Shown here one piece after another: positions 12,001-15,000 of a stretch of DNA of 42,877 bases (position 1 is its first letter; each line of letters opens with the position of its first letter). Source of the DNA: a virus. Its lineage: Duplodnaviria; Heunggongvirae; Uroviricota; Caudoviricetes. The stretch is taken from the IMG/VR virus record IMGVR_UViG_2671181012_000022. One strand, given 5' to 3'. The position numbers are program-made.

Positions 12001-15000
12001 GCGTGGAGGATATTTTACGATGACCTGGCCTGAAGCATTAACAACGGTAGGAATTGCGATGGCGGTGGCGCTGGTGGTGTATTCGATTTGCCGCTGGGGA
12101 TAAAAACGGTTTGCGGGAAAAGGAGAGTTAAGTAGAATTGCAGCGGGTGCTTGAGGCTATCTGTCTCAGGCATGAACACCAAAAGGCAGATAGAGAAAAG
12201 CCCCAGTTAACATTACGCGTCCGGCAAGACGCTTAACATTAATCTGAGGCTCAATCTATGAACGGCAAATCTAGGTTAGCCTCTTACGAGCCGAAAGGCA
12301 AGGAGAAGCAGGCTATGAAGCAGCAAAAGGCGATGTTAATCGCCCTGATCGTCATCTGTTTAACCGTCATAGTGACGGCACTGGTAACGAGGAAAGACCT
12401 CTGCGAGGTACGAATCCGAACCGGCCAGACGGAGGTCGCTGTCTTCACAGCTTACGAACCTGAGGAGTAAGAGACCAGGCGAGGGAGAAATCCCTCGCCA
12501 CCTCTGATGTGTCAGGCATCCTCAACGCACCCGCACTTACCCCGTTTCGGCAGACTTTGTTTTTTCCTGGCATTCTGGTTTACAATTCGCACGTCAGCCT
12601 GAACAACTGGCACCTGCTGCGTCACCGGAGAACCCGATGGCGCAACATATAAAATCCCACAATTCTGAAGTCGATCCGACCATTAAGCGGGGGCGGCGTT
12701 CACACGTATTTAAAACCGACTGGTTCCAGCATCCCCCATGCACTGAAGAACAGGCCGAATGGCTGATCCAGTGTTACCGCAGGCGCGGATATGAGTTTGA
12801 GAAAGCCCTCAGCTTCGATCGTCGTCACTGGATAATCTCCGTCAGGCTCCCTTATTCCGAACGCCCACCGCGTCCGTCCCGCACATTCCAGCAGCGCATC
12901 TGGAGGTAACGTGCGGGTATTACTTCGACCTGTTCTGGTACCGGAACTCGGTCTGGTTATCGTTAAGCCAGGCCGTGAATCAATGTCAGTATTCCATAAC
13001 GGCAGAATATTGGTGGAGCCGGAACCGAAAAACATGCGCGGTCTGCCGTCCGGAGTCGTTCCTGCCGTTCGCCAGCCGCTGGCAGAGGATAAAACATTAC
13101 TGCCATTTTTCAGCGATGAGCGGGTTATTCGTGCAGCAGGTGGTGCAGGTGCACTGTCTGACTGGTTATTACGTCACGTGAAATCCTGCCAGTGGCCACA
13201 CGGCGATTATCATCACAGCGAAACCGTCATTCACCGTTATGGTACCGGCGCGATGGTGTTGTGCTGGCACTGTGACAACCAGCTGCGCGACCAGACATCA
13301 GAATCACTCGATCAACTTGCTCAGCAGAATCTGGTTGCCTGGATGATTGATGTCATCCGTCACGCAATAAGCGGTACGCAGGAGAGGGAGTTATCGCTGG
13401 CCGAATTATCCTGGTGGGCGGCCTGCAATCAGGTGGTGGATGCACTACCTGAGGCAGTAGCGCGTCGTTCGCTGGGATTACCAGCGGAAAAAATCCGCTC
13501 CGTATACCGTGAGAGTGACATCGTACCGGGAGAACAGACAGCCATCAGCATACTGAAGCAGCGCACAAAAAATATTGCGCTGCCACTTCACGTCCACCAG
13601 CAACAAAATCCACCACAGAAAAAAACGGTTGTCAGTATCGCCGTTGATCCGGAGTCTCCTGAATCGTTCATGAGGCGGCCTAAACGTCGCCGTTGGGTTA
13701 ATGAGAAATACACGCGCTGGGTAAAGACACAGCCGTGTGCGTGTTGTGGTAAGCCAGCTGACGATCCACATCACCTGATTGGTCATGGTCAGGGGGGAGT
13801 GGGAACAAAGGCCCACGATATTTTCACGCTACCGTTGTGCCGGGAGCACCACAACGAACTTCATGCAGACCCGCTGAAGTTTGAGAAAAAGTACGGCTCT
13901 CAGATTGAGTTAATTTTTCGTTTTCTTGATCACGCCTTTGCGACTGGCGTGCTCGGGTAAAAGAGGTGACTGATGCTCATAGATTTGGTTTTACCTTACC
14001 CGCCGACGGTGAACACTTACTGGCGACGCCGTGGCAGCACATATTTTGTATCAAAAGCCGGGGAGCGTTATCGCCGGGCAGTGGCGCTTATTGTTCGCCA
14101 GCAGCGACTGAAATTAAGCCTGTCCGGACGGCTGGCAATAAAAATTATTGCAGAGCCACCGGATAAGCGCCGCCGTGACCTGGACAATATTCTGAAAGCA
14201 CCGCTGGATGCGCTGACGCACGCGGGGTTGTTAATGGACGATGAGCAGTTTGATGAAATCAATATTGTACGTGGCCAGCCAGTATCTGGTGGACGGCTGG
14301 AGATAAGAATTACAGAGGTGGGTGTGCATGAATAGCCAGTATTTACAGTTTGTTCGTGAGCAACTCATGATTGCCACTGCGGATCTCAGTGGGTCGACAA
14401 AAGGCCAGCTGGAAGCCTGGCAGGAAAATGCCCTGTTCGATACAGGGCGTTACAGACGTAAAAAAATTCGTTACCGCGATGAGGTAACCGGAAAAATGAT
14501 CACGCGGGATAATCCACCGATCCCGGGCAAACAATCACTGGCGAAAGGGACGTCAATTGCTCTGGTCAGTCCGGTTGAGTTTGCAACATCATCGTGGCGG
14601 CGTGCCGTTCTGGAACTGGAAGAACATCAGAAGGCGTGGTTACTGTGGTGCTACAGTGGAAATGTTTGCTGGGAAGATCAGGTCACCATAACACAGTGGG
14701 TGTGGAGTGAATTTAAAACTCAGTCCGGCTCCAGAAAAATTGCAGTGAAAACGCTGGAGCGTGTGAAGAAGTTGATCTGGCTGGCGGCACAGGATGTCAG
14801 AGGATGGGTTACCGGGTGTGAGGTCTACCAGAGACAGGAGCTTGCCAGACTGTGTGGAGTTAAGCCTGATAACTGGAGCCATAATTATGCGAACTACTGG
14901 CGTGAGATGTGCGATATTTTTAAGCGCCTCGATAGAGAATCCTTGATTTGCTCCGTGAAAATAAGAGCGCAACAAAAAGCGACCTTTTCACGACGAGATA

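Follow-up and report, generated by a model that had tools for sequence, protein, structure and literature searches.

The DNA analyzed here is a stretch of 42,877 nucleotides (nt) from a virus of the class Caudoviricetes (IMG/VR record IMGVR_UViG_2671181012_000022), and this whole stretch is referred to below as the window. To judge from its homologs, the region at 12111–12565 is almost certainly a complete type I toxin–antitoxin locus of the hok/sok family, situated in the nin region of a lambdoid Escherichia coli prophage. A sequence-only reading of the same DNA had proposed a hok-type type I locus with an antisense Sok RNA and a mok frame at 12110–12560. Both the identification and the span agree with our results, in which the −35 hexamer of the hok promoter starts at 12111 and the remnant of a terminator ends at 12565. 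The coordinates of all elements were checked by script, and the definitions of the regulatory elements of the hok mRNA were taken from a previous study (PMC9841398).

The locus lies between an HNH endonuclease gene and the DUF968–RusA–Q genes. The order of the region is as follows: replication genes, the HNH endonuclease gene (11307–11762), an open reading frame (ORF) of 114 amino acids, hok, an ORF of 90 amino acids, the DUF968 gene (12911–13960), rusA, and Q, after which come a methyltransferase gene and three tRNA genes. The hok gene is co-directional with the early rightward operon. We assigned this region to the nin region of a lambdoid prophage because of a comparison with an identical region in RefSeq.

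The toxin gene and its leader frame

The hok toxin gene occupies 12315–12470 on the plus strand and encodes 51 amino acids (MKQQKAMLIALIVICLTVIVTALVTRKDLCEVRIRTGQTEVAVFTAYEPEE), corresponding to the last 51 codons of a 70-codon ORF. Its product matched the Pfam family HOK_GEF (PF01848) over all 42 positions of the profile (1–42; E = 3e-23; 81.6 bits, cut-off 22) and PHROG 251, “MokW-like host killing” (7.6e-33), which bears out the earlier assignment to the Hok family. The protein is identical to HokD/RelF of E. coli K-12 (WP_000813254.1), and the same peptide is encoded by 80 viral loci. The hok Shine-Dalgarno sequence, AAGGAG (12300–12305, plus strand), is partly sequestered in the predicted fold, in which 12303–12306 pairs with 12282–12285. 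The codon for Tyr47 of Hok is TAC in a TACG context (12453–12456). A preprint cites TACG as the motif reported for TadA A-to-I editing that changes Tyr to Cys in the hokB, hokC, hokD, and hokE mRNAs (10.1101/2025.08.07.668861). A tRNA-like hairpin around the TACG of Tyr47 was sought as support for such editing, and the isolated local fold was no better than that of shuffled sequences (z = 0.19).

The mok leader frame (12258–12470, plus strand) consists of 70 codons and ends at the hok stop codon, in the same frame as hok; the equivalent frame in phage 933W is annotated as mokW. Its Shine-Dalgarno sequence, GAGG (12246–12249, plus strand), lies 8 nt 5′ of the mok ATG at 12258 and is conserved in the homologs. 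These four bases are nt 102–105 from the 5′ end of the mRNA, close to their position in plasmid R1, where G105 and A106 lie within the GAGG ribosome-binding site of mok (PMC9841398).

The leader was scanned in 82 loci, namely the window and 81 relatives, of which 80 were viral contigs encoding the identical Hok. As the sequence-only reading had anticipated for homologs, a mok-type overlapping frame with the GAGG site and a conserved ATG was found in 79 of these loci, despite hypervariable codons 2–5. The in-frame 70-codon mok was present in 68 loci, and a 19-codon mok whose TGA overlaps the hok ATG (ATGA) in 11; the other three loci had rearranged leaders and no mok start. From this conservation pattern, it appears that mok is conserved as a translated leader, without conservation of its product, in line with the published view, according to which the translation of mok matters, rather than the Mok protein (PMC9841398). 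In the 11-locus allele group, the equivalent of 12258–12317 contains a 2-nt deletion and a 1-nt insertion, which generate the 19-codon upstream ORF. With its ATGA overlap, this is a classic arrangement for termination–reinitiation coupling, and it replaces the in-frame 70-codon mok.

The antisense RNA and the hok mRNA structure

The Rfam search that had been suggested as a check gave a match to RF01794 (“sok”) at 12145–12320, with a score of 110.1 bits (gathering score 59; E = 2.6e-24). The match covers the full model (1–157), and nearly all consensus pairs are satisfied. It lies on the plus (hok-sense) strand, so it describes the leader of the hok mRNA, i.e., the target of Sok, and not Sok itself. 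A permissive Rfam search of 11900–12800 added only matches to ceN48 and CsrC, which were at chance level and far under the gathering scores.

The position of Sok itself was obtained by pairwise alignment with phage 933W, in which sokW is annotated as a misc_RNA (AF125520, 58664–58734). Sok is predicted to be a 71-nt RNA on the minus strand, running from its 5′ end at 12266 to 12196 and overlapping the ribosome-binding site and start codon of mok. Its predicted fold consists of an unpaired 5′ tail (nt 1–14), a long hairpin, and UUUU (−29.9 kcal/mol, z = −4.9). The sequence-only reading was correct in placing Sok on the minus strand over the leader, but the interval it gave, near 12240–12320, contains only the 5′ third of the RNA together with its promoter, and Sok extends further to the left. 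An antisense RNA of this kind has been detected in a homolog: the hokW locus, which is 93.5% identical to the window locus, carries an annotated sokW of 71 nt that is complementary to the 5′ untranslated region of hokW, was seen on northern blots, and was shown to be antitoxic (PMC8621323).

The putative Sok promoter (12273–12301, minus strand) comprises the −35 hexamer TTGCCT (12301–12296), a 17-nt spacer, and the −10 hexamer TAACCT (12278–12273), which places the start at about 12266, 7 nt downstream of the −10 hexamer. Both hexamers are identical in 933W and Sp5 and are conserved in the homologs (diversity 0.03 across 12273–12314). In the “pro-less” mutant of sokW, primers YO-421/YO-422 turn TAGGTTA into CCGGCTC, and the mutant lost its antitoxin activity, so that the toxicity of HokW was unmasked (PMC8621323). 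As deduced from these primers, the element replaced in that mutant is the Sok −10 hexamer of the window. The putative hok (mok-hok) promoter (12111–12138, plus strand) comprises TTGCGG (−35, 12111–12116), a 16-nt spacer, and TAGAAT (−10, 12133–12138). Across 12100–12142, the window differs from 933W only at 12142 (A/T), and both hok promoter hexamers are identical. The hokW mRNA from the Sp5 locus, which is identical to the 933W locus, is visible on northern blots (PMC8621323). In one homolog (L003), the equivalent hok promoter, TTGGCG-17-TAGAAT, passes a consensus scan, and TAGAAT is kept in homologs even where the upstream sequence diverges.

The full-length hok mRNA is predicted to span 12143–12534 on the plus strand (about 392–398 nt, from tac to fbi), with its ends placed approximately: the Rfam model starts at 12145, and the homology with 933W ends just past 12537. 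We infer transcripts of about 398 nt (full length) and about 360 nt (trimmed). The 398-nt sequence 12143–12540 folded at −162.7 kcal/mol, compared with −116.6 ± 5.0 kcal/mol for shuffled sequences (z = −9.3), with its ends paired together. The 5′ end is formed by tac (translational activator element; 12143–12156, plus strand; GCGGGUGCUUGAGG), and fbi (fold-back inhibitory element; 12520–12534, plus strand; CCUCAACGCACCCGC) lies near the 3′ end. In the minimum-free-energy fold of the full-length RNA, these two elements pair over 14 bp with one bulge. Variation was assessed in 67 distinct homologs chosen only for their identical Hok protein, and both tac and fbi were nearly invariant. In a covariation test on these close homologs, the tac/fbi helix offered too little variation, and pair 12144:12533 showed single-sided changes only.

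The ucb element (anti-Shine-Dalgarno box for mok; 12198–12206, plus strand; AAGCCCCAG) also takes part in the full-length fold, in which 12199–12206 pairs with 12244–12251, containing the mok ribosome-binding site. The tac/fbi clamp and the anti-Shine-Dalgarno pairing of ucb define the closed, untranslatable form of the full-length hok mRNA (PMC9841398). In the Rfam consensus structure, the ucb bases pair with tac instead, and AGGCU (12247–12251) pairs with AGCCU (12278–12282); the same stem appeared when the tac/ucb pairing was forced. In the open form, which is accessible to Sok, the mok ribosome-binding site is accordingly predicted to pair with the downstream complementary box (dcb; GCCUCU, 12279–12284, plus strand). 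The energy cost of imposing the tac/ucb stem was 21.1 kcal/mol in the full-length RNA and, once the 3′ end had been removed, 8.7 kcal/mol, i.e., about 12 kcal/mol less. The forced pairing created the target hairpin between the mok Shine-Dalgarno sequence and dcb. The direction of the truncation effect fits the switch model, but the open form was not the predicted minimum after truncation, and folding thus reproduced the switch only partly.

Downstream of the hok stop codon is a stem-loop at 12478–12499 on the plus strand (GGCGAGGGA-GAAA-UCCCUCGCC; downstream arm TCCCTCGCC), with a perfect 9-bp stem and a GAAA loop, just as the sequence-only reading had described it. It is kept in all 67 homologous sequences and is not a chance repeat. 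The pair 12482:12495 is A–T in 22 of them, G–T in 39, and G–C in 6, and the pair 12484:12493 is G–C or G–T, so that the two variable pairs both change compatibly. The earlier designation of this hairpin as the fold-back element was not upheld, since that element is the segment at 12520–12534 that pairs with the 5′ end. By analogy with R1, the hairpin is likely to be the 3′ terminal protective stem-loop of the trimmed, active hok mRNA; the last stem-loop of the truncated R1 mRNA shields it from 3′ exonucleases, and mutations there make it exonuclease-sensitive and abolish its toxicity (PMC9841398).

In most homologs, fbi is directly followed by a canonical intrinsic terminator, AACCCGC-TTCG-GCGGGTT-TTTGTTTTT (AACCCGCTTCGGCGGGTTTT), which the scan detects in L003. 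The window contains a degenerate remnant of it at 12539–12565 (plus strand; ACCCCGT-TTCG-GCAGACT), in which five substitutions are present and three of the seven stem pairs are broken. No terminator was called by the scan at 12539–12565, and no significant fold was found there (z = −0.3). The functional hokW allele likewise has no terminator after fbi. The same broken variant occurs in three genomes with a 100% identical copy and in one viral contig. Because the terminator stem no longer forms, transcripts from the hok promoter or the early operon may read on toward the ORF at 12637, the DUF968 gene, rusA, and Q.

Related loci and genomic surroundings

By nucleotide identity, the closest characterized relative is hokW-sokW (with mokW) of the Stx2 phages 933W (AF125520, annotated by Plunkett) and Sp5 (VT2-Sakai), the identity being 93.5% over 12100–12541. 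The two loci have in common an in-frame mok, a Sok antisense to the mok start, the tac, ucb, dcb, and fbi elements, the hexamers of the hok and Sok promoters, and a location in a lambdoid prophage. They differ in four C-terminal residues of the toxin (FTAYEPEE in the window, FVDYESEK in HokW) and at eight positions within 12256–12271, a segment containing the 5′ tail of Sok and mok codons 2–5, so that Mok starts with MNGKS in the window and MokW with MLNTC. Furthermore, in 933W the locus is found close to the right end of the genome, with other downstream genes, whereas the window locus lies in the nin region.

The hokD (relF) gene of the Qin prophage in K-12 encodes an identical Hok, and its DNA is 98.7% identical over 12301–12539. 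It is also followed by a small ORF and then by a DUF968 gene (ydfU in K-12). However, it has none of the sequence 5′ of 12301, and therefore none of the hok promoter, tac, ucb, the Sok gene, the Sok −10 hexamer, or the mok start. In K-12 MG1655, relB–relE abut hokD in place of the missing upstream part. As far as the alignment indicates, K-12 hokD is a 5′-truncated copy of the locus type that is intact in the window, and the window form is presumably ancestral relative to the K-12 stump.

The prototype of the family, hok/sok (parB) of R1, has the same set of regulatory elements in the same geometry, a terminal protective stem-loop, and a toxin of the same Pfam family, but it is a plasmid locus whereas that of the window is a prophage locus. 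In R1, mok is out of frame with hok, whereas the window mok is in frame. The protein identity between HokW and R1 Hok is about 44% (PMC8621323).

A copy of the window locus with 100% identity was found in three complete E. coli chromosomes, including NZ_CP045712.1, where RefSeq annotates the hokD coding sequence only, under the protein accession (WP_000813254.1) that hokD of MG1655 also has. Of 5,426 complete E. coli genomes, 4,010 (about three quarters) contained a homolog spanning 80% or more of the 398-nt transcript, with a median of 2 copies per genome and a maximum of 9. The IS4-like element IS421 was observed shortly 3′ of hok in two copies, one on a plasmid and the other a chromosomal mokC copy (L083, 921–1150; L084, 768–1213). 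In L084, the hok stop codon precedes it by about 78 nt, so that it occupies the expected position of fbi and the 3′ elements. Insertion sequences that repeatedly target the 3′ regions of hok may provide a route of inactivation.

We also analyzed the distribution of variability along the transcript in the 67 homologs. The most variable 22-nt segment of the whole transcript was 12251–12272, with a diversity of 0.317, compared with 0.03–0.07 in the other untranslated RNA. This hypervariable segment encompasses the 5′ tail of Sok, the loop of the target hairpin in the hok mRNA, and mok codons 2–5. In 120 further loci, it occurred as 17 alleles, of which that of the window was the second commonest. 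These alleles typically differ at 5–6 of the 14 tail positions. At least 10 classes exist among the prophage hokD/hokW loci with the same toxin, with a median of about 6 differing tail positions between classes; the 5′ end of the window Sok (GCCGUUCAUAGAUU) represents one of the commoner classes. Sok tails from the same genome could be recognized in three pairs among the viral contigs, two of which differed and one of which was identical, which is too few for a comparison.

Several features of the neighboring region were also recorded. The upstream ORF of 114 amino acids (11759–12103) matches only PHROGs of unknown function and has a hydrophobic C-terminal segment. In 933W, the hok module and the 3′ end of this ORF are conserved together, although the genomic contexts of the module differ. 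The three tRNA genes (16677–16926), 3′ of Q and the methyltransferase gene, have the anticodon CAT and the identities Arg-TCG and Arg-TCT. The CAT tRNA is annotated as tRNA-Ile in RefSeq, and is therefore probably lysidine-modified. The trio resembles the ileZ-argN-argO cluster that Stx-type lambdoid phages typically carry. Downstream of the trio there is no evident stx ORF; instead, an S-adenosylmethionine-dependent methyltransferase gene (16952–17947) is found there. Two tandem-spaced copies of the prophage small RNA (sRNA) STnc100 (RF02076) occur at 18048–18254 (134.9 bits) and 18534–18744 (168 bits), between the methyltransferase gene and a nanS-like esterase gene, which is the position of stx in Stx phages. 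A 2026 preprint has linked STnc100 to PasD sRNAs.

Mechanism, biological role and significance

The mechanism was demonstrated with R1 hok/sok and partly with hokW-sokW, and the conserved anatomy described above leads us to expect, with high confidence, that the window locus would work in the same way. The weak constitutive promoter with its −10 hexamer at 12133–12138 would produce a stable mRNA of about 400 nt. In the full-length mRNA, tac (12143–12156) would be clamped to fbi (12520–12534) and the mok ribosome-binding site (12246–12249) paired with ucb (12198–12206), and this closed form would permit neither translation nor the binding of Sok. Slow exonucleolytic trimming from the 3′ end would then strip off fbi and halt at the stable hairpin at 12478–12499. 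After trimming, tac would pair with ucb, and the mok ribosome-binding site and start codon would enter the target hairpin, with the loop at about 12259–12271 exposed. While the prophage is normally transcribed, the unstable 71-nt Sok would bind the exposed loop by its single-stranded 5′ tail. The resulting duplex over the mok start would block the translation of mok, and hence the coupled translation of hok, and would expose the mRNA to RNase III. When the supply of Sok stops, the pool of trimmed mRNA would be translated, and the 51-residue Hok would enter the inner membrane and kill or lyse the cell.

The toxicity of Hok and its neutralization by Sok are likewise expected for the window allele by analogy, as both were shown for the 93.5%-identical hokW-sokW (PMC8621323). 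The work on hokW-sokW showed toxicity and a dependence on RNase III and Hfq. Deletion of hokW-sokW had no effect in uninduced lysogens. After treatment with mitomycin C, sokW RNA vanished and HokW built up in the inner membrane in a RecA-dependent manner; in the presence of hokW-sokW, growth arrest occurred about 40 minutes earlier, and phage release was twice that of the deletion strain (PMC8621323). By analogy with these results, the most likely role of the prophage locus is to accelerate host lysis and phage release after SOS induction, although this is less certain than the molecular mechanism. The hokW result may not transfer exactly, because the window copy sits elsewhere in the prophage than hokW does.

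The same machinery could have been selected for a different role, i.e., the stabilization of the prophage or of the chromosomal region by post-segregational killing, or abortive infection. The sequence-only reading had spoken of a probable stabilization or abortive-infection module, and we regard such a role as quite possible, if somewhat short of an even chance. R1 hok/sok stabilizes plasmids by post-segregational killing and, on a high-copy plasmid, protected against T4, and hok genes are about four-fold enriched in prophages (10.1101/2025.08.07.668861). Furthermore, the annotation of the 933W locus reads “prophage maintenance.” However, no enrichment of hok was found near defense systems (10.1101/2025.08.07.668861), and the experiment with hokW-sokW is the only direct test of a prophage copy. 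As described above, it showed no effect on growth without induction and an earlier arrest with doubled phage yield after induction, which points to lysis and release. The earlier proposal is therefore plausible, but the one relevant experiment favors another role.

A further explanation is that the locus has decayed and, in common with most of the chromosomal hok loci in K-12, is a relic without function, which can be recognized by its sequence but is no longer regulated or capable of killing. Several of our results weigh in this direction or, more generally, against the main reading. A consensus scan for promoters and terminators over 11900–12800, on both strands, returned nothing, with both proposed promoters below its threshold. 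The −35 hexamer of hok matches the consensus at only three of six positions, as does the −10 hexamer of Sok, which explains why the scan missed the latter and why the earlier reader could not place the Sok promoter. With its five substitutions, the terminator after fbi no longer folds, so that the primary transcript would have no defined 3′ end. For the trimmed mRNA, ViennaRNA did not return the open tac/ucb form as the minimum; a fold with tac in a local hairpin was more stable by 8.7 kcal/mol. In addition, K-12 hokD is itself truncated, keeping only 12301–12539, and, according to the literature summarized in a survey preprint on Hok, the chromosomal hokA, hokB, and hokC loci showed no post-segregational killing when tested (10.1101/2025.08.07.668861).

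Nevertheless, we consider decay improbable. The two promoters, tac, ucb, dcb, the ribosome-binding sites of mok and hok with the mok ATG, the 3′ hairpin, and fbi are all present without disruption. The hok ORF encodes a toxin that is widely conserved, under obvious constraint, and present as the identical peptide in 80 viral loci. The promoter region is that of the functional hokW but for one base outside the hexamers, and hokW also functions without the terminator. Based on this homology, we take both promoters to be real but too weak for the scan, and its negative result is not treated as absence. Finally, there is no insertion sequence near the window locus, unlike the situation in L083 and L084. 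The weakest alternative concerns the hairpin at 12478–12499, which, as the strongest local structure 3′ of the stop codon, might be taken for fbi or for the hok transcription terminator at which the mRNA ends; we rejected this as extremely improbable, because the hairpin is followed by ACCUCUGAUG rather than by a U-tract and was not called as a terminator in the scan, because the near-invariant 12520–12534 further 3′ is complementary to the 5′ end of the mRNA, a pairing that defines fbi (PMC9841398), and because the homology with 933W runs on past the hairpin to about 12537.

The hok/sok family, its prophage copies, and the HokD-identical toxin are already known; the 933W locus has been annotated since 1999, and the function of hokW-sokW was tested in 2021 by Takada et al. 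(PMC8621323). The locus in the window is therefore an ordinary cassette that adds little that is new. Its value for annotation lies in exact coordinates for features that automatic pipelines do not annotate, namely Sok, the Sok promoter, and the RNA switch elements, and the window marks a complete locus of the hokD type, of which K-12 keeps only a truncated copy. The hypervariable segment could hold modest interest in relation to the number of hok/sok copies that can coexist in the absence of cross-talk. Its variability would fit selection for Sok/hok pairs that do not cross-react, and we tentatively suggest, as a possibility rather than a probability, that 12251–12272 is a diversifying “specificity cassette,” with each of several co-resident copies, of which an E. 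coli genome has a median of 2 and up to 9–10, controlled only by its own Sok. If this is true, punishment would still follow when any single prophage is lost, despite the presence of several co-resident copies.

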